From: Candidatus Poribacteria bacterium
GTDB taxonomy: Bacteria; Poribacteria; WGA-4E; WGA-3G
DNA: 64,000 bases
Reading direction: 5' to 3'
Assembly (NCBI GenBank): GCA_965214095.1
Contig: OZ243938.1
Coordinates: forward strand, 3,456,001-3,520,000
Below the pieces are notes generated by a model. The model saw only the letters and a program-made list of their open reading frames with translations, searched no databases and had not been told where the DNA came from. A program made the translations under genes and the position numbers. Positions 16,901 through 42,390 of the stretch are shown here, piece after piece (within the stretch, counting starts at the first letter, position 1; every line of letters starts with the position of its first letter).

Positions 16901-16954
16901 ATGCATGATTATCACATACGATTGCACTTTGCAGTCAAAAAATACAAGGAATAT

Positions 16955-21832: not shown

Positions 21833-21862
21833 CAAACACAAAGAAATTATGGAGTTATGACA

Positions 21863-24800: not shown

Positions 24801-27800
24801 CTCCCCGGTATTAACAGTGCCAACGATGTAACCGAAGCACATCTCCGAACAATTACACACTTAAATCTGAAAAACAAAAACATTTCAACTTTAAAGGAAG
24901 GTGATTTTGACGGGTTGTCGGCACTTACCGAACTCCAACTACAACAGAACCGATTAACAACACTTCCTGCTAATATCTTTTCCGGATTGTCGGCTCTGAG
25001 GACGCTCTATCTGAGTAGCAATCAACTTGCAAGCTTACCGATGTCTGTGTTTTCAGGTTTATCGTCGTTGTCTAACCTATACCTGAATAATAACAAGCTT
25101 ACCAATTTACCCGAAACAGTTTTCTCCGGACTGACCTCACTGAGACAGATAAACATGCACACAAACCAGCTGACAACACTCCACGTCAATGTGTTCTCGG
25201 GGTTATCGTCACTGAACCAAATAAGTGTCAACGACAACAGATTGACAAGTTTACCAGAAAATGTGTTCTCTGGACGGACAGGTCTGGTATACCTCTATTT
25301 GGATGGTAACCGACTAACGAACCTACCAGCAAACTTGTTTTCTGGCTTGTCGGCATTACAGCAGCTCAAGTTTAATAACAATCGACTGAGTGCTTTACCT
25401 GCAGGTTTATTTAGTGGGTTGTCATCATTATCATGGCTCCTGATCCATAATAACACAGTAAACCCGTTCCCCTTTACCGTCTCATTAGAAAAGGTTGGTA
25501 CAAATCAGTTCAAAGCGACCGCGCCTGTGGGTGCCCCATTCACTTTGACAATACCGGTCAGTATCGTTAACGGTAGCATCAGCGGCGGTGCTTCTACCCT
25601 AACAATACCAGCAGGTAACGTCGAATCACAAGTGCTCACCATTACACGCACACTCGGCACAACGGGTGCTGTTACCGTGGATATCGACACATTGCCGGGG
25701 TTACCGACGCAACATCAAGGTTACGTACTTGTCAAGTCATCGACTTTGCCGTTAACAATCATCAATGCGCTCAATAATAACGCACCAATATTCACGGAAG
25801 GCACAAGCACGACGCGTGCAATTGCAGAAAACACGTCATCAGGTGTCAACATCGGCAGTGCTGTATCCGCAACGGATATTGAAAACGACACATTAACTTA
25901 TAGTCTCAGTGGCACAGATGCATCAGCATTCAATATAGATACAACGAACGGGCAGCTGCAAACGTTGGCAGCACTCGACTACGAAACAAAATCGTCCTAC
26001 ACGGTGACAGTCACAGTCTCCGATGGCAACCTCACAGATACAATCACTGTCACTGTAAATATTACCGACATTGATGAATTACCGACAGATTCAAACGTTT
26101 GTATGGTTGGAGACATCCTCGCCCCCGGTGAGAGTTGCACGTATCCAGACTCAGATGCTGTTTTCTCTGTGCTTGCCAATGGACATTCACAATGGAATAT
26201 TCCAAATTTACCGTCGTGGCTTCAGTGGATTAACCAAGTCGCAATTGGCGGATCAATGCGAATCACTGCAACAGTTAATAATACGACTTACCACTTCGTG
26301 GCAGAGTCTGTCAGCAATAAGTCTTGGGAAATAAAGGAGATCGGAGATGATACAAGCCAGCAGCCTGTTACACCTGATTCTACTGAAAACCCAGAAACAG
26401 CACCAACACTAACTACATCAACTGCAGCACCACTCACAGAGTCAGCACTGCATGGGGGTATCATCACACTTAACCTCAGCGGTGGCACTTTTGAGCACTC
26501 CAAGTTCACAATCAGAGATGCGATAACGTTGACCGGAATTTCTGGTGTTACCGTTGACACATTCGGTGTTGATCGGGTGAGTGATACGCAGGTCACTGTT
26601 GAACTGGAATTTGATGGGAATATGACAAGTGACAGCAACCTGACCATCTCTTTGGGGGCAGATGCAATTAAGGATTATGATAGTTCGGCACTGACTGCGC
26701 AAATATCAGTCTCTGCAGTCAATGAATCGGTCACCGCTTCGCCATCCACATTGACCGAGGCGACACTTGATGGCACAGAAGTTACCCTCACGCTCAGTGG
26801 ACGGAAATTTGAACGATCTATTCTTGACATCAGAGATGCTGTGTCAGTCTCAGGCATATCGGGTGTAACATTCCCGTGGCACGACCCGGATAAGGAGAGT
26901 GATACCGAACTCACTGTGAAACTGGAATTTGATGGAGATATGACAAGTAATGGCACACTTACGTTTACCGTAAGTGCGGATGCTATCGCAGGATATAATG
27001 GTCCTGTCCTTACCGCGCAAATCTCTGTCTCTGCCACAGGTACAACAACCCCATCAAACCGTGCGCCAATATTTACTGAAGGTAGCAGTGCCACACGCTC
27101 GGTAGCAGAAAACACGGCATCAGGTGTAAATATAGGCAATCCTGTATCTGCTACAGATGCGGATGGAAATACGCTCACTTATAGTCTTGGTGGCACAAAT
27201 GCATCAGCCTTTAGCATTGTCAGCAGTTCAGGGCAGCTGCAAACGAAAGCATCGCTTGACTACGAAACGAAGACATCCTACTCGGTCACCGTCTCTGTCT
27301 CTGATGGAAATGGCGGGCGTGATAGCATCACCGTGACAATCAACATAACTGACATAAACGAAAATATTCCAAACCGCGCGCCAGTATTTACTGAAGGTAG
27401 CAGCACCACGCGCTCGGTAGCAGAAAACACGGCATCAGGTGTAAATATAGGCAATCCTGTATCTGCTACAGATGCGGATGGAAATACGCTCACCTATAGT
27501 CTTGGTGGCACAAATGCATCAGCCTTTAGCATTGTCAGCAGTTCAGGGCAGCTGCAAACGAAAGCATCGCTTGACTACGAAACGAAGACATCCTACTCCG
27601 TCACCGTCTCTGTCTCTGATGGAAATGGTGGAAGTGATAGCATTTCCACCACTATTAATATTACTGATGTGACTGAGACAGAAACAACTACAAATGGCAC
27701 ACCATCCATCAGTGTCTCTGCTGATACCACATTGACAGAAGCAACACTTGATGGCACAGAGGTTACCCTCACGCTCACAGGTGGCACTTACGAAAGCTTA

Positions 27801-28631
27801 TTCTGGAATTATCAAAAGGTATCTGCCTCTGGGATCACAGGTGTGACTTTTGATGATTTTTTTGATGTTGACCGCGAAAGTAGCACAGAACTCACCGTTG
27901 AACTGACATTTGATGGGAATATGACCACCGATGGCACACTCACCTTTACCGTTGATTCGGATGCTATCGTGGATTATGATGGTTCGGCACTGACTGCGCA
28001 AATATCAGTCTCTGCAGTCAGTGAATCGGTCACCGCTTCACCATCCACATTGACCGAGGTAACACTTGATGGCACAGAGGTTACCCTCACACTCAGTGGA
28101 CGGAAATTTGAGCGATCAATTTTTGACATTAGAGATGCTGTGTCAGTCTCAGGTATATCGGGTGTAACATTCCCGTGGCACGACCCGGATAAGGAGAGTG
28201 ATACCGAACTCACTGTGAAACTGGACTTTGATGGAGATATCACAACTAATGGCACGCTTACCTTTACCGTCGGTGCGGATGCTATCGCAGGCTATAATGG
28301 TTCCGCACTTACTGCACAAGTGTCTGTCACTGCAAACCAAGAGAACGTTCTCGGGGCAAACTTCCCAAATCCATTTAACCCAGAAACATGGATACCGTAT
28401 AAGCTGGCGAAATCCACAGATGTAACTATCACTATCTATGCTGTGAACGGCATATTGGTCAGGACGTTGATCCTCGGACATCAAGCTGCAGGTATGTATC
28501 AAAGTCGTTCCCGTGCCGCGTATTGGGATGGTAAAAACGAGTTCGGTGAAAAAGTAGCGAGTGGCTTGTATTTCTATACACTCATAGCAAGCGATTTTAA
28601 TGCTACGCGCAAGATGTTGATACGGAAGTAA
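21863..28631 (+). pseudogene. Frameshifted secreted WD40 + LRR + Big_1 + cadherin protein with C-terminal sorting domain (ORFs 21863-22729 and about 22698-28631)
   Basis: GGAG RBS and signal peptide; WD40 repeats GHTDSVLSVSFSPDG..LW continue across the frame change at about 22698 (ELA / HESSVYSVDFSP); then LRR, 3 cadherins, repeated TLTEATLDGTEVTLTL domains and NFPNPFNPETWIPY. Confidence 0.85.
27057..27650 (+). repeat. Recent tandem duplication of a cadherin domain (315-bp period)
   Basis: Long identical DNA runs such as CGCTCGGTAGCAGAAAACACGGCATCAGGTGTAAATATAGGCAATCCTGTATCTGCTACAGATGCGGATGG occur twice. Confidence 0.9.
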
Positions 28632-28837: not shown

Positions 28838-29392
28838 ATGAAAACAATAGAACTTCTTCTACCGCATCGCCACCCTTTTCTGATGGTTGAATCAATTGTT
28901 GAGTACATTGGCAGTGATGTACCTATTCTCAATGCAGAGCGGACCATTCGTCGTTCTGAACCCATGTTTTACGGTGCTGAACCACCGTTTTACTGGCCAT
29001 CAGTGTACATCATTGAAGGTTTGGGACAATGCTGTATTCTCTTGACTCTCATTTGGGCATGTGAACGTAGACGTGAGGCGGATGGATTAGGCGCGGAAAA
29101 TGTGAGTGTTCTTTTCACAAGTACAGAAGGTGTTGATAACGACTATACTTTGACGCAATTTTTGGAGATTTTGTCAGACAAAACAGTGAATGACGTATCC
29201 AGAAATGGCATGTTAGCTTCGGTAGATGTTGAGATTGTTAGTAATGTTCAAGCGGGTAAGTTACTTCAATATAGGGTAGAACTGACACGTGTATTTGGAA
29301 GATTTGTCAGTTTTGGGGTGAAAGCGTTTGTTGAAGGACAGACAGTTGCCCACGGCACGATGGTGGGGGCACAATTGGAGAATATTATATGA
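28838..29392 (+). CDS. FabZ-like hotdog-fold dehydratase, probably lacking the catalytic His
   Basis: LLPHRHPFLMVE and WPSVYIIEGLGQ; FYGAEP where FabZ has FxGHFP. Confidence 0.8.
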   Translation: MKTIELLLPHRHPFLMVESIVEYIGSDVPILNAERTIRRSEPMFYGAEPPFYWPSVYIIEGLGQCCILLTLIWACERRREADGLGAENVSVLFTSTEGVDNDYTLTQFLEILSDKTVNDVSRNGMLASVDVEIVSNVQAGKLLQYRVELTRVFGRFVSFGVKAFVEGQTVAHGTMVGAQLENII

Positions 29393-30933
29393 CGTGCTAT
29401 TCCGATGTAGTGATCGTTGGCGGAGGTCTGGCAGGATTGACTTTAGCACTTCAACTGCGACAAACACTTCCAATACTCAGTGTGACTGTACTTGAGAAAC
29501 ACCGATACCCTGTGCCTGAAACAACTTTTAAGGTAGGCGAATCAATGGTAGAGGTATCCTCTTGGTATCTCAGGGAAATACTGGGATTAGGTGATCACTT
29601 GATGGAATCCCATTTACCAAAGTTTGGACTGCGCTTTTTTATGAGTGAACACGACAACAGTGATTTGGGATGCCGACCAGAGTTCGGACCATTGAGTAGT
29701 TCAGAAAACATACCGAATAAACCCATGAAGCATCTCCCCGGAATCCACCTTCCGACATACAACGTTGATCGTGGACGTTTAGAGAACCATCTCTTGGAAT
29801 GCTGTCGTGAGACCGATATAGAGGTCTTAGAAGCCTGCAAAGTTAAGAGTTTAAACCTCGGTAATCCCCACGAACTTGTCGCAGACGTAAGCACGGCCGA
29901 TTTGAAAATCAACTCGCGATGGGTTATTGATGCAACCGGTCGTGCGGGGTTCCTCGCACGACGTTTGAAACTCAGACAGACGCAAGGACATGAGGTCAAT
30001 GCCGCATGGTTTCGGCTTGCTGGGCGAATCGATCCAGACGATTGGACAGACAGTGCAGCGTATCACTCTAGAACACGGCCAGGGCTGCGTTGGCTTAGCA
30101 CGAACCATCTAATGGGAGAAGGCTACTGGATATGGCTGATTCCGCTCCCAAGTGGCGCGACAAGTGTCGGGATTATGACAGACCCTAACCTACACGCCTT
30201 GGAACAATTCAACCGATTTGAAAAGGTGTTGACGTGGCTCACACCACGGGAACCGCAACTAACTGAAGTTGTTTCGTCTTTTGAACATCTTGACTTCCAC
30301 GTTATGAAAGCAAAATCTTATCTCAGTCGACGCACTTTCTCAGCGGATCGTTGGGCACTCTGTGGAGAATCCGCATTTTTTTTAGATGCACTCTATTCAC
30401 CAGGAGGGGATTTTATCGCTGTGGGAAACACCTTAATAACACAAATGATTGAAGCAGATTTCGCATCAGACCGGCTCCAACTGTCAATTTGTGCCAAATT
30501 TGGTGAAGAGTTGTTAAATGGTATGTTCCGACATTATTTGGGGTTGTATCACGGGAACTACGCGTTGATGGGAAAACCAGGTGCCATGCTACAGAAAGTC
30601 GTCTGGGATACCGCTGTTTACTTCGCCTATAATGTCCTACTTTTCTGTAACGATCGCTTTTGTGATGTTAAGTTTCATCGTATGATTAAAAAGGAAAACG
30701 CGTTATTGGAGAGCCTACAACAGCGTATGATACACCGTTTCAAAAGGTATGAAGCACGGAGATGTTCTTACGCAGGGCACTTTATTGACCAAGCGCGCGT
30801 TGAGCAGGTTCAATCGCTCTATTTGTCCAGTAAAGACCGTTTAAAAGATGCTGGTATTCTCAAAGACCGATTGTCCGAAAACCTTAAAATCTTGGAGTCC
30901 TTTAGCAACAGGATAGAGGACCTTGTGAAATGA
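29389..30933 (+). CDS. Flavin-dependent halogenase (carrier-protein/aryl-polyene-associated type)
   Basis: GGGLAG FAD motif, KVGES, PKFGLRFF, DRGRLEN, WIWLIP (WxWxIP), FLDALYSPG. Confidence 0.85.
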   Translation: MTCYSDVVIVGGGLAGLTLALQLRQTLPILSVTVLEKHRYPVPETTFKVGESMVEVSSWYLREILGLGDHLMESHLPKFGLRFFMSEHDNSDLGCRPEFGPLSSSENIPNKPMKHLPGIHLPTYNVDRGRLENHLLECCRETDIEVLEACKVKSLNLGNPHELVADVSTADLKINSRWVIDATGRAGFLARRLKLRQTQGHEVNAAWFRLAGRIDPDDWTDSAAYHSRTRPGLRWLSTNHLMGEGYWIWLIPLPSGATSVGIMTDPNLHALEQFNRFEKVLTWLTPREPQLTEVVSSFEHLDFHVMKAKSYLSRRTFSADRWALCGESAFFLDALYSPGGDFIAVGNTLITQMIEADFASDRLQLSICAKFGEELLNGMFRHYLGLYHGNYALMGKPGAMLQKVVWDTAVYFAYNVLLFCNDRFCDVKFHRMIKKENALLESLQQRMIHRFKRYEARRCSYAGHFIDQARVEQVQSLYLSSKDRLKDAGILKDRLSENLKILESFSNRIEDLVK

Positions 30934-31709
30934 ACACGCACACTGACCGAATTAGGAACCGATTGTCGCGATTACTATCCGACATGCAACCGCCTTCAGT
31001 TGCAGATGCACATCCAAAAATCTGTGAGCGGGTGTCGAACGCGCGGGCAGCTTTTTTGCAGGGGGTGCATCATGCACTAAAGGCTTCACCAGAGATGCTT
31101 CCTAAACTTTTACAAGATGAACCGTTCGAAAAACGTGGTTTTGCTCTTGAAGGTGCAGCGATGGCACTTACCTTAATGGATGAATTCAGCCCTGCACCTC
31201 AAAACCAGTTGAATGTATTCCTTAATGGACGATCTATTGAAGAACATATTCTAAGTGCAATTGGGGTTGGATGGGCAAGCGCACGTCTAGGAAAACCTTT
31301 TGACTGGTCACCGACAGCGTTAGACTCAAACTTTATAGCCGCAGTTGTAGATGGATACGGCTTTCACCAAGGATTCTTCCATCCTCAGCGGTTCACATGC
31401 AGGGGATTTCCTATGAGAGAGAGCGAATTAAGCACTTTCTATGATATTGGTCTCGGACGCGCATTGTGGTTTGTTCATGTCGGTCACATTGAAACTATTG
31501 TCCGCACTATTGACAGATTTTTACCGAAACGACGTAAGCAACTTTGGCATGGTGTCGGCACCGCTTGTGCCTTTACAGGTAGCACAGAATATGCCGCGAC
31601 ACAAATGAGGACTGCTGCGTCAAAATTTGAAAATAACTTCCAAGCAGGGGTAGATACCGGCACACAATTGCTGTGTTATCTTTCCCAACAAAAGGAGAAA
31701 ATACTATGA
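30930..31709 (+). CDS. DUF1702 (UnbL-like, enediyne-cassette family) protein
   Basis: GFALEGAAMAL, IGVGWASARL, DGYGFHQGFF, DIGLGRALWF, LWHGVGTACAFTG match my recollection of DUF1702 motifs. Confidence 0.8.
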   Translation: MNTHTDRIRNRLSRLLSDMQPPSVADAHPKICERVSNARAAFLQGVHHALKASPEMLPKLLQDEPFEKRGFALEGAAMALTLMDEFSPAPQNQLNVFLNGRSIEEHILSAIGVGWASARLGKPFDWSPTALDSNFIAAVVDGYGFHQGFFHPQRFTCRGFPMRESELSTFYDIGLGRALWFVHVGHIETIVRTIDRFLPKRRKQLWHGVGTACAFTGSTEYAATQMRTAASKFENNFQAGVDTGTQLLCYLSQQKEKIL

Positions 31710-32782
31710 AACGAAGAGATTTTTTAATTGGCAGTATGGGGGCATTAGCTACAGGTGTTACTGGCTGCGCGGGTATCGGTCAGGTTATTGCTCCAGATTG
31801 GCAAAATATCACACCTTTGCAGATGGATCGTTTTTTGACAAGTCTCGATGGTGCGATGAATCAAATCACAGAGAACCCAGAAGGAGGACGTTTTATTAGT
31901 GAGCTACATCAAAAACCGATCAATGAAAAAGGTGCACGTTTGTTCTGTCAAGGGATGCGCACTCTCTTACTCGCTGGCAATTTCGGTGATCTATCGGTAA
32001 CCGGTCAAGTGCATCCGGGTGTTCAGAAACGACTTCACTATTCTGCACCGGAAATGGATGCAGCTGCCTCTGATGCAACAGATCAGATGAAATCTTTGTC
32101 ACCGACTGCGCGTGCCGATATGCAGACAGCACTGCGTGATGACCCTGCACTTGGAGATCACGTGCTGAAGACGATTGAGCTTGAAGCCGCTGCAGTTGGT
32201 GCCTCTAACCGGCGTCTGATGCAATTGCACGTCATGGGCAAACACATCATTGGACGTTTGAAACATTCATCTGAAATGTTAATTAATGAATACGTAACAA
32301 AATATGAAAAACTTACCGCTATACCGGGTTCCGCTGCTGAAACACAGCGATTTATGGCAACACGTATGGGTGAAGCAGCTTTTAAAGCACGAGTCCGAGA
32401 AGCAGAAAATGCTGCACGGTATTGGCAAAAACAGGACCTTGAAGACGTTCCTATTGGTTATCAACTGGTGGCACAAGAAAGCACAAACAGTGAAAATGAA
32501 TCAGCCAATCGTGATCAGAGACAAACTCAACCACAGCAGGCACTGACTAAAGAAGAGATCATAGCGAAAGCTCAAAGTGATCTAAGTGGAGACTGGTTCA
32601 GAACAGGCTTATTCACACTTGGATTCGGGGTCATAACCACTGCAGTCGGTTCGATTATGATATCATCAGGTAATAACGTAAACGACAGCGGGGTTGTATT
32701 TGGATTGGTCCTGGGAGCGACCGTCGGACCCGCAGCTATCTTTGCTGGTCTCATTACCCTCATTATAGGTATTGGAAAATAG
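31706..32782 (+). CDS. Tat-exported lipoprotein, copy A, with C-terminal two-TM hairpin
   Basis: AGGAG RBS; ATGA overlap with DUF1702; KRRDFL twin-Arg motif; lipobox VTGC; Gly-rich hydrophobic C-terminus. Confidence 0.8.
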   Translation: MKRRDFLIGSMGALATGVTGCAGIGQVIAPDWQNITPLQMDRFLTSLDGAMNQITENPEGGRFISELHQKPINEKGARLFCQGMRTLLLAGNFGDLSVTGQVHPGVQKRLHYSAPEMDAAASDATDQMKSLSPTARADMQTALRDDPALGDHVLKTIELEAAAVGASNRRLMQLHVMGKHIIGRLKHSSEMLINEYVTKYEKLTAIPGSAAETQRFMATRMGEAAFKARVREAENAARYWQKQDLEDVPIGYQLVAQESTNSENESANRDQRQTQPQQALTKEEIIAKAQSDLSGDWFRTGLFTLGFGVITTAVGSIMISSGNNVNDSGVVFGLVLGATVGPAAIFAGLITLIIGIGK

Positions 32783-32897
32783 ATACCATGTATGGGATGA
32801 TTCTAAGACAGCACGTAGTCCACATACATGGGTCTACGCTAAACTTTGATATGAGTTTTATAAGACACGTATCACTCACCGTGAAAAGGAGAATAAA

Positions 32898-33275
32898 ATG
32901 AATATAGGTCGTATCTTTCACATTTTAGTATTTGTTATGGCGGTGTTAGTCTTTAGTATGTCTATTGCTGCCTTTGCACAACAAAATTCAGAACTATTCG
33001 AAGCCGTAAGTGCCGCCGAACAAGATGCCAAAGCGGAGGTCAATCAAATTAACTGGTGGTTATCGGGTTGTTGTCTGTACGGTATCAGTCAGGCTGGTAG
33101 GGAATCTCACCCGCCTCCAGGAAGACTTGTTGGGAAGTCTCCAGAATATGTTAATGTCTATACACTAACTTACAAAGCAAAAGTCGAGAATCTTAGACTA
33201 AGTGCTGCTGTTCCGGGTTTTCTTACTATTGTTCTATCCCCCATTTGCTTTGTTCTGACCATCTCGCTACTATAA
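32898..33275 (+). CDS. Small membrane/secreted hypothetical protein
   Basis: AGGAG RBS, signal peptide (AAFA-Q), WWLSGCC, PPGRLVGKSPEY, C-terminal hydrophobic segment. Confidence 0.75.
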   Translation: MNIGRIFHILVFVMAVLVFSMSIAAFAQQNSELFEAVSAAEQDAKAEVNQINWWLSGCCLYGISQAGRESHPPPGRLVGKSPEYVNVYTLTYKAKVENLRLSAAVPGFLTIVLSPICFVLTISLL

Positions 33276-33311
33276 CATTCTGGGATGCTATAGAACAAGG
33301 TAACTAATAGA

Positions 33312-33431
33312 GAATATGCAGCGGCACAGATGGGTAAAGCCTCCGCAAAGTTGGTGCCTGATTTCTGGACAGGATTAGAAACTGGTAAGCAATTGCTACA
33401 TAATTTCGCTAAACAAAGGGAGAAAATATAA
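33312..33431 (+). pseudogene. 3' remnant of a second DUF1702 gene
   Basis: EYAAAQMGKASAKLVPDFWTGLETGKQLLHNFAKQREKI* versus EYAATQMRTAASKFENNFQAGVDTGTQLLCYLSQQKEKIL*; stop overlaps the ATG of copy B. Confidence 0.8.
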
Positions 33432-34534
33432 TGAAGAGAAGAGATTTTTTAATTGGCAGTATGGGGGCATTAGCTACAGGTGTTACTGGCTGTGCGGGTA
33501 TCGGTCAGGTTATTGCTCCAGATTGGCAAAATATCACACCTTTGCAGATGGATCGTTTTTTGACAAGTCTCGATGGTGCGATGAATCAAATCACAGAGAA
33601 CCCAGAAGGAGGACGTTTTATTAGTGAACTACATCAAAAACCGTTCAATGAAAAAGGCGCACGTTTGCTCCGTCAAGGGATGCGCACTCTCTTGCTCGCT
33701 GGCAATTTCGGTGATCTATCGGTAACCGGGCAAGTGCATCCGGGTGTTCAGAAACGACTTCACTATTCTGCACCGGAAATGGATGCAGCAGCCTCGGACG
33801 CAACAGATCAGATGAAATCTTTGTCACCGACTGCGCGTACCGATATGCAGACAGCACTGCGTGATGACCCTGCACTTGGAGATCGCGTGCTGAAGACGAT
33901 TGAGCTTGAAGCCGCTGCAGTTGGTGCCTCTAACCGGCGTCTGATGCAATTGCACGTCATGGGAAAACATATCATTGGGCGATTGAAACATTCATCTGAA
34001 ATGTTTATTAATGAATACGTAACGAAATATGAAAAACTTACTGCTGTATCGGGTTCCGCTGCTGAAACACAGCGATTTATGGCAACACGTATGGGTGAAG
34101 CAGCTTTTAAAGCACGAGTCCGAGAAGCAGAAAATGCTGCACGGTATTGGCACAGCCAGGAACTTGAAGACATTCCTATTGGCTATCGACTCGTCGCACA
34201 AGAAGGCACAAACAGCGAAAGTCCGTCAGATAACTCTGAACAGGAACAACGACATCAACCGCTGCAACTACCGCAAGATATAGGCAAAACAGGCAAAGAG
34301 GTAAAAAGTGGTGAGAAGAGAAGTGAAAGACTGCGCCGAAGAGGTGCTTATTTACTTGGAATCGGTGCTGTAACCACCGCGGCTGGCTGGCTATATATCG
34401 GTGTTAGTGGAGATTCAGTAGAGGCTGTCACAATCGGATTGATCCTGGGAGTGACTGCCGGACCCATTCTCCTCTTAACAGGTCTCTTTACCCTCCTTGT
34501 TGGAGGAATCATAAGAGCAAATGAAGGCCCATGA
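33431..34534 (+). CDS. Tat-exported lipoprotein, copy B
   Basis: Near-identical to copy A over the first roughly 240 aa; different linker and two-TM C-terminus. Confidence 0.85.
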   Translation: MKRRDFLIGSMGALATGVTGCAGIGQVIAPDWQNITPLQMDRFLTSLDGAMNQITENPEGGRFISELHQKPFNEKGARLLRQGMRTLLLAGNFGDLSVTGQVHPGVQKRLHYSAPEMDAAASDATDQMKSLSPTARTDMQTALRDDPALGDRVLKTIELEAAAVGASNRRLMQLHVMGKHIIGRLKHSSEMFINEYVTKYEKLTAVSGSAAETQRFMATRMGEAAFKARVREAENAARYWHSQELEDIPIGYRLVAQEGTNSESPSDNSEQEQRHQPLQLPQDIGKTGKEVKSGEKRSERLRRRGAYLLGIGAVTTAAGWLYIGVSGDSVEAVTIGLILGVTAGPILLLTGLFTLLVGGIIRANEGP

Positions 34535-36459
34535 AAGTCTTAGCCACTGGTCTCGGGGCATGTTGTGCCTTGGGCGAAAACACTAAAACACTTTGGCATG
34601 CTATAGAACAAGGGAAAAGCGGTATTGCACCCATCAATCGCTTTAATACTGATTCATTTCATACGCAACTTGGAGGGATGGTGCCTTCTGGCAATTGCTA
34701 CGATACCGAAGACCAACGTCTGTTGGCTTACGGGCGCGCTGCAGCTGCTGAGGCTCTCCAACATGCCAAAATTGTCAATCGTGATCGAGTTGCCCTGGTA
34801 CTTGGGACCTGTAACGGGTTACAAGAGAGTGAAATAGAGACTGTGAGCGTTGATCTCAAAAATGCCTTGGGTCTCGGTGGACCGGTGCTCACCTTTTCAA
34901 CGGCGTGTGCATCCTCAACACACGCAATAGGATTCGCTGCGGATCTCGTGCGACGTGGCGTTGCTGAATTCGTTCTCGCGGGTGGTGTTGATACACTCAG
35001 CATAGAGGTCTTTGCTGGTTTTCACTGTCTCGGATTGCTATCTAAAAACCCTTGTGCACCCTTCAGCACAAATACAGGAACTACCCTCGGTGAAGGGGCT
35101 GCGTTTATGATACTTGAATCTGAACGTTCCGCGAAGGCACGGAAGATCGCGCCTTTGGCAACGTTCATGGGCTACGGATTGTCTGCTGATGCCTACCATG
35201 ATACAACCCCTATCCCTTCTGGTGCCGGCATGGCACAGGCACTTTCTGCTGCCGTAACGGATGCTGGACTTACCCCTAATTCTATTGACTATCTTAACGC
35301 TCATGGCACAGGCACGGTCGCGAACGATACAGCTGAATGGCGCGCAATTCAACTTGCATTCGGTGATGTCGCAGACCAACTACCTGTCAGTTCAAGCAAA
35401 AGTTTCCTCGGTCATGCTCAAGGGGCTGCTGGCGCACTTGAGGCAGTGGTGACTTTGATGGCGATGCAACACAAAGTTGTACCACCCACTATCAATTTCA
35501 CAAAACCTCGCCCTAATGTCCCCACGGATCCAGTTACCGAACAAAAACCCAGGCCTCATCCAATACAGCATGCAGTCTGTACAAACGCAGCGTTTGGCGG
35601 ATTTAACGCTGCATTGATCTTCGGCCAAACAGAGAATCCACAGCAGATCCGGAGAGAAGAACCCCGGCTCATTCGTCTTATTGGCACAGGCAAGGTGGAA
35701 GATTGCCATAAAATAAAACAATTCGCACCGAGTTCTGAGCTACGAACCATAGATAAGTCTGCACGTCTTCTCGCCAGTGCGGTTGCTGTCGCTCTGACAA
35801 ACGCTGGGATCCAACTACGCACACCTGACTGCAAAAGCATTGGTCTTTTCGTCGGCCAAACCAGAATCTCTCAAGAGAGCGTTGAAGCATTTTCAGAAAG
35901 TGTAGCGGCACGCGGCTTGGCATCCTTCTCAGCAACCGCATTCACACGAATGGCTTGCAGCTACGCCACAGGTGTTAGTTGCAGACTTTTCGGACTAAAA
36001 GGACCAACTGCAACACTGTCAACAGGACCAAGCAGTGGACTTACGGCTCTCGTGACCGGTGCAGACCACCTTGCTTGGCGTGATGATGTTAATTCTCTAC
36101 TGACCGCAGCAGTAGATGAACCAAATAAGTTAGATGATTATGATTACGGAGCCGCCAGCGTTCTTCTCACAGTTGGAGAGGAACCGGCTTCTATTAACCT
36201 TATTGGATGGGCACTCGCAACGGATTGCGAAGAAGCTATCGTACAAGCACTGGCTAAGGCATCCCTTAATCGCAAGGACGTTGTGCCGATGGTCGTTCCG
36301 GGACCACCTACCGTCGCAGACCTTTGGGCAGTCATCGATGCTATTGATGCCTTAAAATCGGGCGAACCAGGCCCCTTCCTTATCAGCAGCAAAGATGACG
36401 GAACCGCAGGAGCAGCTGTTATCCTGCAAAATGGGAGTAAAGAATGCAATCAAATTTGA
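34531..36459 (+). CDS. Beta-ketoacyl-ACP synthase (FabF-type) fused to a CLF-like inactive KS domain
   Basis: TACASS, NAHGTGT and KSFLGH give an intact Cys-His-His triad; second domain LKGPTATLSTGPSSGLTAL lacks the Cys. Confidence 0.9.
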   Translation: MKVLATGLGACCALGENTKTLWHAIEQGKSGIAPINRFNTDSFHTQLGGMVPSGNCYDTEDQRLLAYGRAAAAEALQHAKIVNRDRVALVLGTCNGLQESEIETVSVDLKNALGLGGPVLTFSTACASSTHAIGFAADLVRRGVAEFVLAGGVDTLSIEVFAGFHCLGLLSKNPCAPFSTNTGTTLGEGAAFMILESERSAKARKIAPLATFMGYGLSADAYHDTTPIPSGAGMAQALSAAVTDAGLTPNSIDYLNAHGTGTVANDTAEWRAIQLAFGDVADQLPVSSSKSFLGHAQGAAGALEAVVTLMAMQHKVVPPTINFTKPRPNVPTDPVTEQKPRPHPIQHAVCTNAAFGGFNAALIFGQTENPQQIRREEPRLIRLIGTGKVEDCHKIKQFAPSSELRTIDKSARLLASAVAVALTNAGIQLRTPDCKSIGLFVGQTRISQESVEAFSESVAARGLASFSATAFTRMACSYATGVSCRLFGLKGPTATLSTGPSSGLTALVTGADHLAWRDDVNSLLTAAVDEPNKLDDYDYGAASVLLTVGEEPASINLIGWALATDCEEAIVQALAKASLNRKDVVPMVVPGPPTVADLWAVIDAIDALKSGEPGPFLISSKDDGTAGAAVILQNGSKECNQI

Positions 36460-36734
36460 AAGAAAAAATTCAACAACGTGAAAACACCTTCAATCGGGTG
36501 ATTGAAATGTTAATCTCCTCTCTGCAACTTGAGTATACTCCTGACGAACTGGATGCGGATACACCCCTTTTCGGAACAGGGCTCGGACTTGACTCTGTAG
36601 ATGCAGTCGAGGTCATTATAACATTGGAGGCAGAATTCGGAATTTCACTGGATGAAGGTGATAGCATATTCGTTTTACGAACAATTAATTCACTCGTGGA
36701 TGTGGTAATGAGTCGAAAGGAGAATATACAATGA
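36444..36734 (+). CDS. Acyl carrier protein
   Basis: DTPLFGTGLGLDSVDAVE phosphopantetheine motif, EAEFGI; acidic, 96 aa. Confidence 0.92.
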   Translation: MQSNLKEKIQQRENTFNRVIEMLISSLQLEYTPDELDADTPLFGTGLGLDSVDAVEVIITLEAEFGISLDEGDSIFVLRTINSLVDVVMSRKENIQ

Positions 36735-37759
36735 CAGAAACTGAAGTCGGCTATCATGCCATTCGTAACTCGGTGGCATTTGCTGAAGAACCTGAACTGC
36801 GTTGCCTGCAGTTGACTGGCAGCCAAGCCTTTGAGGCACTTGATTACGTGTGCCCATGTGATATCTTTCTTCAAGATGGGCAGATGCGACATACACTGTT
36901 GCTAAATGAAAATGGAACCCCTTTTGCCGATGTCTATGTTTGCCGTGAAGCTGAAAATGCTTATCTGGTTGGATATGGATCCAATGTTGATGAGATTATA
37001 GACTGGATTACCGATCACGCAACCGGTATTACTGATTTTTTTATCACCGATCTCGGCGAGTCACATGCTAACTTAGCATTTGATGGTCCTTATGCATGGG
37101 AACTATGTGCCGAAGTATTTGGCACCAATGTCCTCGGCTTACCCTATTTGGGGATGTTGCTCTTGGATGATATATTTATCTTTAGGGCAGGAAGAACAGG
37201 TGAATATGGGTATCACCTATTAGTGCCGATTGATCAGAAAAACACTTGGATCGAAAAAGTGTTAACTACTGGTGCAGCATTTGAGATGGCACGCGCAGAT
37301 GAAGCAGCCCGAGCCCAATGTGTATTGGAAAATTTCTTCTTTGATATCAATAGAGAAGGTCAGTATAATCTTACACCTTTGGAATTGCAGCTGCAATGGC
37401 GATTGTCCAAGCAGAAAGACACATACCCCGGTGCTCAAGCGATACAGGCACTTCGACAGACTGGATTGACGCATAGACTCACCTGTTTCACAACACCGGA
37501 CGCTGTTAACACTAACTCAGAGATTACCTATGATGGTGAAATTGTAGGACAGGTATTAGCATCAGGATATTCTCCGATGCACAAGATTTATGTCGGGAAG
37601 GCATTACTTCGCAAACCATATTGGCATGCTGGATTAGATGGTTTTCGCGCTGAAGACTCTCACATAAAGACTATCTCGGCTCCAGCAGTCAACAATCTTA
37701 GTTTAAATGTCAGTCCTTACCATCACAGTTTTCACACACGAAAAGAGGAGTTGACCTGA
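36731..37759 (+). CDS. GcvT/aminomethyltransferase folate-binding family protein
   Basis: GYHAIRNSVA, LTGSQAFEALD, HTLLLNENGTPFAD, DGPYAW, RAGRTGEYGY, TPLELQLQW, VGQV..GYSP. Confidence 0.85.
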   Translation: MTETEVGYHAIRNSVAFAEEPELRCLQLTGSQAFEALDYVCPCDIFLQDGQMRHTLLLNENGTPFADVYVCREAENAYLVGYGSNVDEIIDWITDHATGITDFFITDLGESHANLAFDGPYAWELCAEVFGTNVLGLPYLGMLLLDDIFIFRAGRTGEYGYHLLVPIDQKNTWIEKVLTTGAAFEMARADEAARAQCVLENFFFDINREGQYNLTPLELQLQWRLSKQKDTYPGAQAIQALRQTGLTHRLTCFTTPDAVNTNSEITYDGEIVGQVLASGYSPMHKIYVGKALLRKPYWHAGLDGFRAEDSHIKTISAPAVNNLSLNVSPYHHSFHTRKEELT

Positions 37760-37857
37760 TGCGTTGGGAGACATGGCACAACGAATGGAGAGATGGCTTG
37801 CTAAAACTGCCATACAAAAAGAATGGCGTAAGGTTCACCTCCTATGAAAGATGGTAA
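37759..37857 (+). other. Small ORF (32 aa, Trp-rich) or scar of an internally deleted gene
   Basis: GAGGAG RBS and TGATG overlap give MRWETWHNEWRDGLLKLPYKKNGVRFTSYERW*; another frame ends QRMERWLAKTAIQKEWRKVHLL* with ATGA overlap on the next gene. Confidence 0.5.
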
Positions 37858-38398
37858 AAAGTTCCTTATCGGTGCTGATGTCATAGAACATCTAATACCT
37901 GAGCGACATCCAATGATTATGGTCGATCGGGTAATTGATTATCAAAGTTCGCCGCGACCACAACTATCTGCTGAACGGTATGTGTCGGCTAATGAACCAG
38001 TATTTGTCGGACATTTTCCTAATTTGAAATTGTGGCCCGGTGTTCACACTATTGAAGGACTCCGGCAATGCTGTGTCCTCCTTGATGTTATTCGCCAGTT
38101 GGAAAAAGTAGAGATGCTTGAAGGACTCCTTGAGCTTCAAAGGTACCACATGCTACAACCTCAAGTGGACAAAACCCTGTGTCAACGGGTGCTTGATGCC
38201 TTACAAAAGATATGTCAACTTGAGCAATCTCCGCTTAGATTACGCGTAAAACTACTCGCTCCTGTTTTCGCGGGATGTATTATTACGTATCAAGTCTATC
38301 AGAATAACTCGGATACCTACTGTTGGTCGGTGCAAGCTGAAGTCAATGGACAAAGTGTCGCGAAAGGAGAGATTATATGTCCATCTTCCGTTGGATAA
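37844..38398 (+). CDS. FabZ-like 3-hydroxyacyl-ACP dehydratase with catalytic His/Glu
   Basis: LIPERHPMIMVDRV, EPVFVGHFP, WPGVHTIEGLRQ, LAPVFAG. Confidence 0.85.
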   Translation: MKDGKKFLIGADVIEHLIPERHPMIMVDRVIDYQSSPRPQLSAERYVSANEPVFVGHFPNLKLWPGVHTIEGLRQCCVLLDVIRQLEKVEMLEGLLELQRYHMLQPQVDKTLCQRVLDALQKICQLEQSPLRLRVKLLAPVFAGCIITYQVYQNNSDTYCWSVQAEVNGQSVAKGEIICPSSVG

Positions 38399-39720
38399 CT
38401 TTGATACTGGTACTGGTTATTTGCGGCTGTAGTAAGGAATATCTCGTTTGGTACGGTCACAGTCCAGACCGTACCAAACGAGTAGAAGTTATTGAGAAAG
38501 ATAAACGTCAACAGATCAAAATGGGCGAAACTCTTTCGCAACCTTATCTCGGTGTAGCACTCAAAACCATCGTCTTTAGTGAAGATTCCCGACACTTTGC
38601 TTATGCTGCTATGATCGATGAAGGTTGGATTGTCATAACTGATGGTGAGCGTAGTCGTCTCTGGACAGGCATCGGGGAAGTTCTATTCGGACCGAAGCAG
38701 CAACTTGTATATGTCGCTTCCGATTTAGGTGGTTGGCACGTTGTAGTAGACGGTGTCCCAAGCGTTTCTTTTGAAGCGGTGATGCAGGGTTCGCTTACTT
38801 TCTCACCGGACGGATACCATCTCGCTTATGTAGTTGCCGTGGGAAACCAGTTCCGAGTCGTTATAGATGGAAAATTAGGGTTCCTTTATGAAAACGTAGC
38901 AGCACTTCGGTTCAGTCCGGATAGTGAACAAATCGCATACATTGTAAGAAACGGTCTTCACCAATACATAGCACTGGATGACAAATTACTGGGACCATTT
39001 AACCAAATTGCAGATTTTACTATCGGGCGAAACGGTAGATTGGGAATATTGGTTCGTGATCATGATGGATGGCGAACTGTGATAGACGGACAAGAGGGAG
39101 AAGTGTTTGACAATTTAAGTAGTATCCAATTTTCAAGAAATGGACAGTACGCTTACGCTGCAGAACGTGATAACAGTTGGGTTGTTATCCAAAATAGCAC
39201 GCACAGCCCCGTATATGACAGTGTCAAACAACTTACTTTCGCAAAGGAAACGTTATTCTACGAAGCAAGTTTAGGAGACGACACTTGTATTGTAACAAAC
39301 AATATTCGCGGTCCATTGTTGAAATGGGTAGGTCGTTTGATTGTCAGCCCTGACGGTCTTCACACCGCTTACCTCGGACAACCCTGTGGAGGAAATATAT
39401 CTGTCTTTCACAATGCGAACGTGCATGCTGTTCCAAACGCTCTAAATGGCACACTCGTTTTGAGCGACGACTACCAACATTGGGCATGCTTAGTGCAAGA
39501 CGAAATTGATGGAACCATTGATATTATTATTGATGGACAATTGCGATATCCTTTTGACTTAGAAGAGATGATGGCACTAATAATGTTAATCCCAGATGCT
39601 TCAAGTGCCCAACACGAAAAAATACTACGCCGTTGGGTTAAAGCAGAACTCAAAGCTTATTATGTCAAAAAAGGATCTGCACAATCTCCTGAAACATCTA
39701 AAAAGTTTACACGAATGTAA
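38377..39720 (+). CDS. Beta-propeller (TolB/WD40-like) lipoprotein
   Basis: Lipobox ICGC; repeats of FSPDGxHLAYV...WxVVxDG about every 37 aa. Confidence 0.8.
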   Translation: MSIFRWITLILVLVICGCSKEYLVWYGHSPDRTKRVEVIEKDKRQQIKMGETLSQPYLGVALKTIVFSEDSRHFAYAAMIDEGWIVITDGERSRLWTGIGEVLFGPKQQLVYVASDLGGWHVVVDGVPSVSFEAVMQGSLTFSPDGYHLAYVVAVGNQFRVVIDGKLGFLYENVAALRFSPDSEQIAYIVRNGLHQYIALDDKLLGPFNQIADFTIGRNGRLGILVRDHDGWRTVIDGQEGEVFDNLSSIQFSRNGQYAYAAERDNSWVVIQNSTHSPVYDSVKQLTFAKETLFYEASLGDDTCIVTNNIRGPLLKWVGRLIVSPDGLHTAYLGQPCGGNISVFHNANVHAVPNALNGTLVLSDDYQHWACLVQDEIDGTIDIIIDGQLRYPFDLEEMMALIMLIPDASSAQHEKILRRWVKAELKAYYVKKGSAQSPETSKKFTRM

Positions 39721-39800: not shown

Positions 39801-40607
39801 TCATGTCAACCTGATAACATCCTTCTTAACTATCTCTTTTGTGTGATTGATGTCTGCATGAGCGATTAATTCTAACGTTTCTGGTGCTAACCGATCTCTC
39901 ACCTCTGTAGGTAGACGACTCTCACCACGGTCTTGCGGTCTAAACCGTAAAACAAGGAAGCAACGATATCGGTCTATCGGTTTCCAAGGGAGTGCGCCGT
40001 GGGTTAAGAGTTCCGAGATTATCACAATATCCCCTGCTTTTGGTGTGATATTTTCTACACCTGCGGGAAGGTCTTCAACATCATCAATAGTTCCATTGTT
40101 GAATATGTGTTCGGGACGATCATATTCAGCTTTGTGTGAACCGGGAACAACTAACAATCCACCATCACCGGGATGCACATCTGTTAGATATGGGAAAACG
40201 ACGAAATCATCACAATAGATTTTACCATTTCGGTTTTCAAAGCAGTTCTTGTCCCTTCCATAATCTTCACGCGCACAATGTAGCCGTAATGCTTCTCCAC
40301 CTTCCGGAACACCAACTCTGTCTGCTATCATTGTGCCACGAAACAGCTGCGGTTTATCGTCAGTCAGTTCCTTAATGATAGACCAACTTGCAGGGTGTAA
40401 TGCAAGTGCTTCCAATGCTCTTGAGAAAGCAACTCCGTTTGGCAAGTGTTTTCCACTGGAGTCAAATCCTGCAGGAAGTTCATCAGATGGAGTGTTGATG
40501 TAACTATCAGCTGCTTTCTGTGCTGCTTCTAATTCATCTCCTGTAATTGCATTCTTAAGATGTAGAAATCCAGTAACGTCAAAAAGATATCGTTGTTCAG
40601 GTGTCAT
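39801..40607 (-). CDS. PhyH-family Fe(II)/2-oxoglutarate enzyme with H-x-A motif
   Basis: MTPEQRYLFDVTGFL, DGGLLVVPGSHK, KAGDIVI, LTHGALPW; proximal motif LHCAR. Confidence 0.85.
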   Translation of the reverse strand: MTPEQRYLFDVTGFLHLKNAITGDELEAAQKAADSYINTPSDELPAGFDSSGKHLPNGVAFSRALEALALHPASWSIIKELTDDKPQLFRGTMIADRVGVPEGGEALRLHCAREDYGRDKNCFENRNGKIYCDDFVVFPYLTDVHPGDGGLLVVPGSHKAEYDRPEHIFNNGTIDDVEDLPAGVENITPKAGDIVIISELLTHGALPWKPIDRYRCFLVLRFRPQDRGESRLPTEVRDRLAPETLELIAHADINHTKEIVKKDVIRLT

Positions 40608-40631
40608 CATTACATTATACTCGCTATAACG

Positions 40632-41321
40632 TCAAATCTCTAATATAATTGGAATATCAGTCAACGAACGTATTTCATAATCGGGTTCAATATTTGTATT
40701 GTTTTGCGTGCCTTCGCGGTTGAGCCAGACAGCAGGCACACGAACATTTTGCGCGCCTGCGACATCGTTCTCAAGCGAATCTCCTACATGCATCAACTGT
40801 GAGAATTCACAACCTGCGTGCTGAGCAGTAATCTCAAAAATTTTCGGATCCGGTTTCTCAACTTGCACATCTTGAGCAAAGATTACAAAATCAAAATAAT
40901 CCTCAAGTCCACACCGTTCAGGATATGTGTTTCCATTTGAGAGCAGTCCTAACTTAAAGTGTTGTGCCAGAACCTCAAATGTCGGTATAACATCAGGATA
41001 TAACTCTATGTCTTCAAACCTATGCTTGCGATAAATTGCATTCAGGTGTGCGGCTAACTTTTCGTTAGGATATCCTACATATTCCAGTGTCTGTTCAAAA
41101 GCACCTCGTCTTATTTCTAAGAGATTCCAGATTTTACCTTTTACTTCTTCTGCATATTGATCTCGGATCCATATCATCTCATCAATTGTCAGTTCTGATG
41201 CCCGTTGTGTCGGCACTTGTTCTTGTAGTTCATTTAAAGTCTGTTTGAGCGAATGACGCATGACCTTGTGAAAATCCCACAAGGTCATATCACCATCAAA
41301 TGAGATAACCGAAATATTCAA
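40632..41321 (-). CDS. HAD-superfamily hydrolase
   Basis: FDGDMTLWD, LLSNGN, EKPDPKIF, HVGDSLENDV. Confidence 0.9.
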   Translation of the reverse strand: MNISVISFDGDMTLWDFHKVMRHSLKQTLNELQEQVPTQRASELTIDEMIWIRDQYAEEVKGKIWNLLEIRRGAFEQTLEYVGYPNEKLAAHLNAIYRKHRFEDIELYPDVIPTFEVLAQHFKLGLLSNGNTYPERCGLEDYFDFVIFAQDVQVEKPDPKIFEITAQHAGCEFSQLMHVGDSLENDVAGAQNVRVPAVWLNREGTQNNTNIEPDYEIRSLTDIPIILEI

Positions 41322-41338
41322 GGACTTTTCCTCTAAAA

Positions 41339-41725
41339 CTATGATTCAGGCACCCCTATAGAAGCGTGTATTTGTGCGAATTTCCACAAGTTGTCAACAT
41401 TTTCTAAAACTCCTGTCATTCGCATCACGAATTCTTCAGAAACACCTTGCCACTTGAGTTTCCATATCTGACGTGTATAAAACCAAGCGACAGGATCGCG
41501 TTCTTGTACATCAAGATTGATGACTTTGATGCTGAAATCCTCAGTACTTACAACATGATTTTGATAATAGGCTGCAATTCCATCTACACCTTCAACGACT
41601 TCACCTGCATCCGTGCCTATCTTCACATAGTGTGTGGCAGGAAACATCATTGTAATAAGGGTTTCAGCATCTCTTGTCACAAGTGCCTCAAAATATGCCT
41701 TTACCGTATCATGCGCATTCGGCAT
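41339..41725 (-). CDS. SnoaL/NTF2-like protein
   Basis: IGTDAGEVVEG, VAWF, RMTGVL..WKFAQIHAS. Confidence 0.85.
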   Translation of the reverse strand: MPNAHDTVKAYFEALVTRDAETLITMMFPATHYVKIGTDAGEVVEGVDGIAAYYQNHVVSTEDFSIKVINLDVQERDPVAWFYTRQIWKLKWQGVSEEFVMRMTGVLENVDNLWKFAQIHASIGVPES

Positions 41726-42299: not shown

Positions 42300-42390
42300 T
42301 AATTTAGTACTCCATATCATGTATTATGAACTTGGGTTGTTGATCAATCTACAATTAAGATTTCTATGTTCCATTGAAAATCTGTTTTGT

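Follow-up and report, generated by a model that had tools for sequence, protein, structure and literature searches.

A 64,000-nt window of a Candidatus Poribacteria genome (contig OZ243938.1, positions 3,456,001 to 3,520,000) carries a compact operon whose core resembles a type II polyketide synthase (PKS), and it is this operon, together with its relatives in other genomes, that is described here. Eleven open reading frames (ORFs), all on the + strand, are tightly packed across positions 28838-39720 of the window, with coordinates verified by translation (Table 1). In order, they encode hotdog1, a flavin-dependent halogenase-like enzyme (FDH), a DUF1702 protein, copy A of a helical protein with a twin-arginine translocation (Tat) signal, orf125, copy B of the Tat protein, a ketosynthase (KS) fused to a chain-length-factor (CLF)-like domain, an acyl carrier protein (ACP), a GcvT-like protein, hotdog2 and a beta-propeller protein.

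Table 1. Features of the operon, numbered from the first nucleotide of the window.
Feature	Position	Strand	Description
hotdog1	28838..29392	+	184 aa, FabZ-like, catalytic His missing
FDH	29389..30933	+	flavin-dependent halogenase-like enzyme, 514 aa, PF04820
DUF1702, short form	30930..31709	+	259 aa, all-alpha, PF08012
Tat-signal helical protein, copy A	31706..32782	+	358 aa from ATG 31706, lipobox Cys, C-terminal two-helix membrane hairpin
orf125	32898..33275	+	125 aa, N-terminal signal-like and C-terminal hydrophobic segments
Tat-signal helical protein, copy B	33431..34534	+	367 aa, universal cassette component
KS-CLF	34531..36459	+	KS fused to truncated Cys-less CLF-like domain, 642 aa, PF00109 and PF02801
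ACP	36444..36734	+	96 aa, PF00550
GcvT-like protein	36731..37759	+	aminomethyltransferase fold, 342 aa, PF01571
Deletion scar	37760..37843	.	former KR and AT site; 32-codon relic and KR fragment
hotdog2	37844..38398	+	FabZ-like dehydratase with catalytic residues, FabA PF07977
Propeller	38377..39720	+	PD40-type beta-propeller lipoprotein, 447 aa, signal and Cys-containing N-terminus

Seven of the ten gene junctions are overlaps. Five of these are true 4-nt ATGA overlaps (29389, 30930, 31706, 34531 and 36731), whilst the KS and ACP genes overlap by 16 nt and the hotdog2 and propeller genes by 22 nt. Upstream of ten of the 11 starts there is a Shine-Dalgarno-like motif. An earlier annotation, made from the sequence alone and referred to here as the original prediction, had described a single coupled biosynthetic unit, and both the packed junctions and the conserved gene order (below) bear this out. 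Its list of junctions was correct for the five ATGA overlaps and in error for three more, which are not overlaps of intact genes: the ATGA at 37844 comes after an 84-nt gap, the TAATG at 33431 comes after a 155-nt gap, and the TGATG at 37759 is the former junction between the stop of the GcvT-like gene and the start of a ketoreductase (KR) gene that, judged against related loci, has been deleted here. A scan of the operon for promoters and terminators returned sites no more numerous than in shuffled sequence. A search of sequencing runs found 18 holders in 8 studies, with no RNA holder among them, and is silent on expression.

Fourteen further loci, representing at least six named phylum-level lineages, share this gene order and are syntenic as far as their contigs reach. 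These loci were located by scanning one genome per species with an alignment of the Tat protein; they comprise seven Poribacteria metagenome-assembled genomes (MAGs), which are the closest to the window cassette, and single MAGs of Latescibacterota, KSB1, Gemmatimonadaceae, Bacteroidales, Prolixibacteraceae, Cyclobacteriaceae and Chitinophagales. Where they must be told apart, loci (L0xx) and genomes (Gxxx) are given the labels of the comparison set, in which G000 is the window genome and G106 its sister genome (locus L016). An order shared across so many lineages is more than chance, and the conserved synteny in distant taxa by which the original prediction proposed to judge novelty is therefore present. 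The invariant core consists of hotdog1, the Tat protein, KS, ACP, the GcvT-like protein, KR and hotdog2, with an acyltransferase (AT) as an optional component. Two complete Bacteroidota loci contain exactly seven genes, i.e. hotdog1, Tat, KS-CLF, ACP, GcvT-like, KR and hotdog2. Flanking genes differ between phyla (regulators, a recombinase and AAA proteins are among them), which places the borders of the cassette at hotdog1 and at hotdog2 or the propeller.

Carriage is sporadic even among close relatives. DUF1702 was found in one of 41 genomes, the window's own, and in none of the 24 congeners and 16 genomes of its order that made up the rest. The Tat protein is present in 8 of 176 Poribacteria genomes, including that of the window, in two genera of one family (g1, 2/39; g13, 5/65), and in a sample of 401 Bacteroidota genomes a strong match was obtained in the seed genome alone. 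These frequencies mark the cassette as accessory. The cassette is also not sponge-specific: it occurs in KSB1, Gemmatimonadaceae and Bacteroidales MAGs, and homologues of the GcvT-like protein, known from proteins and not from synteny, are found in Labilibacter sediminis (56% identity) and Polyangium fumosum (45% identity), which leaves the suggested link to the brominated lipids of sponges weak. The reading preferred here, to which a probability of about 0.55 is assigned, is of a horizontally spread accessory cassette encoding a highly reducing (non-aromatic) type II PKS-like pathway whose product would be an envelope-directed and optionally halogenated acyl chain.

At the centre of this reading is the KS, which scores 116.3 bits against PF00109 and 125.8 bits against PF02801. 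Its Cys-His-His triad (TACAS, NAHGTGT and GHAQG) is present in the window and kept in all 12 loci that hold the gene. The C-terminal CLF-like domain shows weak alignment, over residues 401-496, with the N-terminal half of a KS (13.1 bits). It has G-P/V/L where the active Cys would stand, i.e. there is no Cys, and at only ~270 aa it is truncated relative to a CLF; the KS of the Gemmatimonadaceae locus L032 lacks it altogether. A KS with intact triad joined to a CLF-like domain, as the original prediction had it, thus stands, with the qualification that the partner is both Cys-less and shortened. FabF models outscore every PKS model on the KS (287-302 bits), and the solved structures it matches include that of the ishigamide system (6kxd, E 3e-48).

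The ACP (PF00550, 40.1 bits) retains its serine motif, GLDSVDA, in 11/11 copies. Two hotdog-fold proteins complete this part of the core. Hotdog2 is recognised by FabA PF07977 (41.2 bits), by the FabZ model of NCBIfam (73.7 bits) and by FabZ structures in the PDB (E 4.9e-13), and all 11 true copies have the His of GHF(P/S/G) together with the Glu of TIEGLRQ, a count that leaves out L022 and L036, whose rows are cross-matches of hotdog1. Hotdog1 is FabZ-like by NCBIfam alone (residues 2-71, 52.2 bits against a cut-off of 113), and its best PDB matches are FabZ (E 4e-7). Across 13 loci the Glu of IIEGLGQ is kept, whereas the position of the GHFP His is A/V/N-E in most and His in none. Since hotdog2 keeps both residues and hotdog1 has the Glu without the His, the motifs suggest a catalytic and non-catalytic pair. 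The C-terminal half of hotdog1 has a weak match to the FlK thioesterase (18.4 bits, below cut-off), and the protein probably serves either as the non-catalytic partner to hotdog2 or, in the manner of a thioesterase, as a release factor.

The window operon lacks two genes that its relatives possess. In L017-L021 and L031 a FabG-like KR of 247 aa (adh_short_C2, ~222-230 bits) and a FabD-like AT of 286 aa lie between the GcvT-like gene and hotdog2. KR is found in this interval in 9/9 of the other loci that cover it and AT in 6/9; the Gemmatimonadaceae locus and two Bacteroidota loci have KR without AT, and the loci with AT are all from Poribacteria or KSB1. The window and G106 retain no more than 84-86 nt at the site, and their junctions are 97% identical. 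The ATG at 37759 opens a 32-codon relic beginning MRWE, where intact KRs begin MRWD or MRWE, and a 31-nt stretch of the scar matches the distal KR gene at 90% identity. The comparison identifies this as a deletion of KR and AT in an ancestor common to the window genome and G106. No cassette-type KR or AT was found elsewhere in the window genome, in which the best matches are the adjacent housekeeping genes fabG (42% identity) and fabD (33% identity); the genome also has one AcpS-type phosphopantetheinyl transferase (PPTase).

The ten remaining cassette genes are intact in the window genome and in G106, with ratios of nonsynonymous to synonymous substitution (dN/dS) of 0.10-0.34, values that leave aside a misaligned PhyH row and derive from small counts (1-36 changes of each class in a gene). 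Intact genes and low dN/dS in both genomes indicate that the deletion is old enough for later purifying selection to have acted, and the window operon is probably still functional, with FabG and FabD supplied in trans. It is very unlikely that the window copy is instead a decaying remnant, without present function since KR and AT were lost: such decay would accord with the scar, with the loss of a KR that is otherwise universal and with a partial duplication of the Tat gene carrying a fragment of the KS start, which points to local rearrangement, but all ten remaining genes are intact and constrained in both deletion genomes, their catalytic motifs are unchanged, and housekeeping fabD and fabG are at hand. 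The original prediction had noted the missing activities and offered either supply in trans or erosion of the cluster; the related loci and the scar answer this, in that the cassette had a KR and an AT of its own and both were deleted here and in G106. As a separate observation, synonymous divergence (dS) between G000 and G106 is lower in the cassette (0.03-0.13) than in the neighbouring HAD gene (0.29), a difference that a recent exchange of the cassette, or else codon constraints, could explain.

The GcvT-like protein scores 94.2 bits against PF01571 (cut-off 25.6), and a role as the T protein of glycine cleavage is ruled out by scores below both equivalog cut-offs (TIGR00528, 77.9 against 235.85; PRK00389, 87.8 against 300). 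D67, invariant in an alignment of 20 sequences, aligns with the second Asp of IIDD in the Thermotoga maritima protein (1woo; residue 96 by count), which we take to be the catalytic Asp. The TGE.G motif is also kept, as RAGxTGEYGY. Glycine cleavage T protein and the GcvT-family demethylases (DmdA, LigM and the C-terminal domain of dimethylglycine oxidase) thus share with it the fold family, the Asp and TGE.G, while the cassette protein differs in being embedded in a PKS-like operon and in sometimes being fused to ACP or KR. Such fusions, taken from database gene calls, are recorded to ACP (P0157, P0232) and to a short-chain dehydrogenase/reductase (SDR; P0231).

The closest described parallels to the core are the highly reducing type II PKSs, i.e. 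the ishigamide system (Iga11/Iga12, 6kxd) and the aryl-polyene systems (ApeO/ApeC with ApeI/ApeP). In common with these, the cassette has a discrete Cys-His-His KS with a putative Cys-less partner, a discrete ACP, a FabG-type KR (in the relatives of the window cassette), a FabZ-like hotdog pair of which one member is His-less, and no enoyl reductase (ER). It differs in that KS and partner are fused and the partner is cut down to ~270 aa, and the dedicated KR of such clusters is present in 9/9 other loci and missing from the window and G106. To our knowledge, neither a GcvT-like enzyme nor a Tat-exported helical protein occurs in any highly reducing type II PKS system. The original prediction had drawn an analogy with aryl polyenes, which fails on the genes for starter activation and export: no AMP-binding, MMPL, LolA or transferase Pfam match was obtained in the 11 ORFs (E<=0.01) and none was seen in the window flanks, so that an aryl-polyene cluster was rejected for want of an aryl-starter ligase, a LolA/MMPL export set and an acyl- or glycosyltransferase. 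That prediction had also known of no described pathway with this gene set, and none was found in the literature, MIBiG/antiSMASH comparison and paper supplements being outside the scope of the search; DUF1702 itself is mentioned in only 2 papers.

A second group of systems bears more directly on what the KS might make. In the KS-CYF systems of cispentacin and coronafacic acid (AmcF-AmcG, AmcB and AmcE), as described in passages of PMC10698177, a short KS of ~370 aa likewise works with a reduced, motif-less partner. The N-terminal domain of the cassette KS aligns end to end with the NCBIfam AmcF model (residues 3-365 of 370 against 2-368 of 369), at 248.4 bits for a cut-off of 325; the C-terminal domain reaches 21.6 bits against AmcG (cut-off 80) and hotdog2 52.2 bits against AmcE (E 6.8e-14, cut-off 140), and the cassette ACP and hotdogs match AmcB and AmcE below threshold. 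It is on these grounds conceivable, if rather unlikely, that the KS performs one or two extensions and that partner and hotdogs shape a small, cyclised, non-polyene scaffold, for which the truncation of the partner relative to a CLF would be apt. Every one of the scores is under its curated cut-off, however, and FabF and FabZ models score higher on the same proteins. The cassette also has no AmcH loader, aminotransferase or AmcD, has a KR, and has a partner that is fused and larger than AmcG; no AmcH-type ORF was found in the cassette at any locus, and a cispentacin-type system was rejected. The passages of PMC10698177 that deal with the system call the adenylating loader AmcH indispensable and list no KR in the amc set, whereas KR is universal in the cassette outside the two deletion genomes; in the same passages the KS is Cfa3, which is not a KS-CLF fusion, and the homologue of AmcG is Cfa4. 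A reduced acyl chain from a highly reducing type II PKS-like pathway remains the preferred reading.

FDH, DUF1702 and the propeller are an optional module of the cassette. FDH and DUF1702 are both present in 12 loci (including the window and two partial contigs), both absent from 2, and never found one without the other; DUF1702 adjoins FDH wherever it is present in the cassette. The propeller occurs in 8 of the 10 loci that reach that end, L033 and L035 being those without it, so that it is present in all 8 FDH/DUF1702 loci reaching that end and in 0/2 loci without FDH and DUF1702, although few independent lineages underlie this pattern. The original prediction of a halogenated chain needs amending in that halogenation would be an optional tailoring step, with FDH and DUF1702 missing from 2 Bacteroidota loci that are otherwise complete.

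FDH is above the Pfam cut-off for PF04820 (40.8 bits against 21), and all but one of its 19 PDB matches are halogenases, the remaining one being a generic flavoprotein. The best solved relatives are PltA (5dbj, E 4.1e-18), then ChlB4, CmlS and 5buk, all of which presumably act on carrier-tethered substrates. The GGGLAG sequence is kept as GxGxxG in 12/12 copies (with one G-A-G and one L-T-G variant), K78 of LPKFG aligns with KKFG of PltA and KKYG of ChlB4 and is kept in 12/12, and WxWxIP is present as YWIWLIP in 12/12, which confirms the WxWxIP motif named in the original prediction. The Lys aligned with K78 is, we assume, the catalytic Lys of halogenases. Carrier-protein-dependent halogenases (PltA, Mpy16, CmlS and ChlB4) therefore share with FDH the GxGxxG, Lys and WxWxIP motifs and an ACP, here encoded in the same operon; identity is ~20-25% by eye, and FDH would act on an acyl chain in place of a pyrrole or aromatic ring. 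FDH also has a long C-terminal extension that is conserved and without match.

DUF1702 (PF08012, 150.9 bits) is predicted to be all-alpha in an AlphaFold2 (AF2) model of good quality (pLDDT 86.2, pTM 0.87). Fold searches gave no Foldseek match at E<=0.001 and at best a VIA Z of 3.9, to HEAT-like repeats, and a search of PDB sequences gave nothing meaningful (best E 0.011). The short form (~250-280 aa, >=219 bits) separates from the long forms (>=304 aa, <=179 bits), and by length and score the cassette protein is a distinct short subfamily. Complex prediction for FDH with DUF1702 gave no answer (score 0.00, mark 0.32) and counts neither way. In the KSB1 locus L031 a DUF3800 ORF (8027-8683) is inserted between the DUF1702 and Tat genes. 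The propeller is made of repeated 'SPDG..AY' units, with PD40/WD40 Pfam matches that are all sub-threshold and no sequence match in the PDB; by its Atlas features it neighbours clusters of PD40 lipoproteins (score 0.94), which is no more than a lead. Two extra tandem fragments follow the propeller in L020 (G105, 17510-18130) and correspond to its last 79 residues at 71-72% identity.

A DUF1702 protein is also part of the enediyne PKS cassette (PKSE, thioesterase, UnbL/E3, i.e. DUF1702, UnbV/E4 and UnbU/E5), in which the trio of uncharacterised proteins, like the DUF1702 of the present cassette, presumably keeps company with a secreted propeller-type and a membrane protein. The analogy with enediynes drawn in the original prediction has DUF1702 as its sole basis, and the protein is here of the short subfamily (~259 aa against >=304 aa). 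An enediyne cassette was rejected: there is no iterative type I PKSE, the single KS being type II-like and 642 aa long, and the cassette ORFs gave no UnbV or UnbU Pfam match (E<=0.01), which leaves a likeness in architecture and no more.

The gene for the Tat protein adjoins that for the KS in every locus, often with overlapping stop and start. Both window copies begin MKRRDFL...TGC, i.e. RRDF ahead of a hydrophobic stretch, with a lipobox Cys, and end in two hydrophobic helices. They are 79-81% identical to one another, with 95.3% DNA identity across 809 nt, after which they diverge, and a 32-nt fragment of the KS start lies after orf125. Two copies are found in the window, G106, G136, G116 and G162 and a single one in G171, G105, G119 and all loci outside the phylum. 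Single copies elsewhere and near-identical DNA show the pair to be a local, lineage-specific duplication and not part of the design of the cassette, and from its sequence the second copy is a recent partial duplication; the 'paired' Tat proteins of the original prediction are consequently no feature of the system. Their description as lipoproteins fits the window copies, with their RRDFL and lipobox Cys, better than the family, since among 21 aligned homologues the twin arginine is present in 20 and the lipobox Cys in only 14. Attachment of the product to these lipoproteins, one of the options in the original prediction, is conjectural.

The family is large: 120 homologues were recovered in one search, and 629 representative clusters at E<=0.001, of which 235 at E<=1e-30. 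One homologue carries the NCBI name 'twin-arginine translocation signal domain-containing protein', and no Pfam family matched the Tat proteins. D48, D95, Q101, H103, R109, E160 and W240 are invariant in the 21 aligned sequences. The AF2 model (pLDDT 71.3) has a helical bundle at 37-242, a disordered linker and a two-helix hairpin at 294-365, which is conserved among homologues. The soluble bundle had no Foldseek match at E<=0.001, VIA matched only the hairpin (287-367, best Z 9.4, generic), a comparison of the family with PDB sequences gave nothing meaningful (best E 0.065) and the Atlas gave no usable match. The intervening orf125 has tblastn homologues in 6/7 other Poribacteria loci (48-99% identity over at least half of the query, with short fragments only in L020) and in 0/7 loci outside Poribacteria, and it has no Pfam match.

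In an alternative reading, the PKS-like enzymes might make a small prosthetic group or ligand that is loaded onto the Tat protein in the cytoplasm before export, which would account for the use of the Tat route, as this route exports folded proteins; FDH may then act on protein, for example on the invariant Trp, as QhpG and LodB do. Consistent with this are the adjacency to KS in every locus, the nearly universal twin arginine, the small set of invariant polar residues with an invariant Trp, FDH scores of 72.9 bits against QhpG and 50.8 bits against LodB, and a cassette without transporter or release enzyme. However, 2 loci with the Tat protein have no FDH, the solved matches of FDH are small-molecule halogenases apart from the one flavoprotein, FDH retains the halogenase Lys, and fold searches recognised no ligand-binding fold in the Tat protein. 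We know of no precedent for such a system, and consider it unlikely. In a more speculative form, regarded as quite unlikely, the Tat-family protein would be a carrier that binds the ACP-derived product on the cytoplasmic side and brings it through the Tat translocon across the inner membrane, amounting either to protein-escorted export or to a new protein-bound prosthetic group built by a mini-PKS; FDH, short DUF1702 and propeller would then be a halogen-dependent tailoring set akin in logic to enediyne E3/E4/E5.

For the preferred reading, that of a highly reducing type II PKS-like pathway with an envelope-directed product, the following sequence of events is proposed. The ACP would be loaded with malonate by the cassette AT where there is one and by housekeeping FabD in the window genome. 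The KS, with its fused, truncated and Cys-less partner, would extend a short chain on the ACP, and the FabG-type KR and the hotdog pair would reduce and dehydrate each beta-keto group, with hotdog2 as the catalytic member. No ER-type enzyme other than the FabG-like SDR was found among the cassette genes of any locus, so the chain would stay unsaturated or hydroxylated. The GcvT-like protein would carry out a tetrahydrofolate-type one-carbon transfer on the ACP-tethered intermediate. In lineages with the optional module, including that of the window, FDH would halogenate the carrier-bound intermediate, accompanied by short DUF1702 and the propeller. At the periplasmic face the helical protein, exported by Tat and anchored in the membrane, would receive or use the product, which would thus end in the cell envelope. 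In the window genome the pathway would either borrow housekeeping FabG and FabD or make an altered product. Loading, release and export are steps that we infer.

Several points weigh against this reading. The cassette and window flanks hold no starter-activating enzyme, thioesterase, PPTase, flavin reductase or transporter. A partner of ~270 aa that is absent from Gemmatimonadaceae would permit a single extension, as by AmcF-AmcG, in place of a polyene, and FabI could act as a reductase in trans, as a passage of PMC10698177 reports for cispentacin. The loss of an otherwise universal KR may mean that the pathway is altered or failing in the window lineage, and the dN/dS values that speak for its maintenance derive, as noted, from small numbers of changes. 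The second motif of FDH reads FxDALYSPGG in 12/12 copies, with Ala where the consensus, which we take to be Fx.Px.Sx.G, has Pro. FDH scores almost the same against the CmlS model (74.4 bits, equivalog cut-off 900) as against the model of the peptidyl-Trp monooxygenase QhpG (72.9 bits). Both Trp are retained in QhpG too, according to a passage of PMC7876137, and WxWxIP is therefore not exclusive to halogenases; the reaction of FDH could be oxygenation instead of halogenation.

The neighbourhoods of the cassette contain genes that were considered as members and rejected, as well as others of separate interest. A divergent gene for a B12-binding radical SAM protein lies upstream in L017, L018 and L019 (78-80% identity among the three), followed in L018 and L019 by DUF169, SDR and Zn-ADH-type ORFs; it adjoins the cassette only in these 3 loci, all of genus g13, and was not accepted as a component, although it may be a lineage-specific addition or mere local synteny. 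Downstream of the window operon and convergent to it, genes for a PhyH-like dioxygenase, a HAD hydrolase and a Haem_oxygenas_2 iron enzyme occupy 39801-42320 on the - strand. G106 has PhyH and HAD as well, and there is a PhyH-like ORF near the G171 cassette; PhyH and HAD were rejected as members, being convergent and not conserved outside G106. In L033 a large serine recombinase (17530-19200) lies ~2 kb downstream of the minimal Bacteroidales cassette, which fits mobility of the cassette.

Upstream in the window, three + strand genes (2756-16852, 16901-20977 and 22608-28631) encode giant eukaryote-like repeat proteins of 4698, 1358 and 2007 aa with LRR, cadherin, WD40, LDL-receptor class B and cohesin/dockerin domains. 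At the C-terminus all three have an FlgD_ig-like domain, possibly a secretion or sorting tail. The gene for the 2007-aa protein is 88% identical in G106, and its start (22608-28631) is overlapped by a 307-aa WD40 ORF (21806-22729); the N-terminus of the 2007-aa protein is itself WD40, and a frameshift or a miscalled start may have split a single gene into the two ORFs. The window also contains an FGE-sulfatase (sulfatase-modifying factor) gene at 19-579 and a sulfatase gene at 50896-52344, a combination that is presumably typical of carbohydrate-sulfate degradation in Poribacteria.

The cassette is a compact unit of 7-11 genes that recurs across phyla and joins a type II PKS-like core to three components without an assigned role in such pathways, namely a GcvT-like enzyme of the folate type, a large family of membrane-anchored proteins with Tat export (629 representative clusters) and a short DUF1702 subfamily tied to a halogenase. 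The natural deletion of KR and AT in the window genome is a ready test of crosstalk with fatty-acid synthesis, and cultured carriers of close homologues (L. sediminis and P. fumosum) would put the cassette within experimental reach. Solving the cassette would give a function to DUF1702, which is unexplained also in enediyne biosynthesis, would add a one-carbon transfer step to the chemistry of type II PKSs and might identify a halogenated envelope lipid of sponge symbionts.

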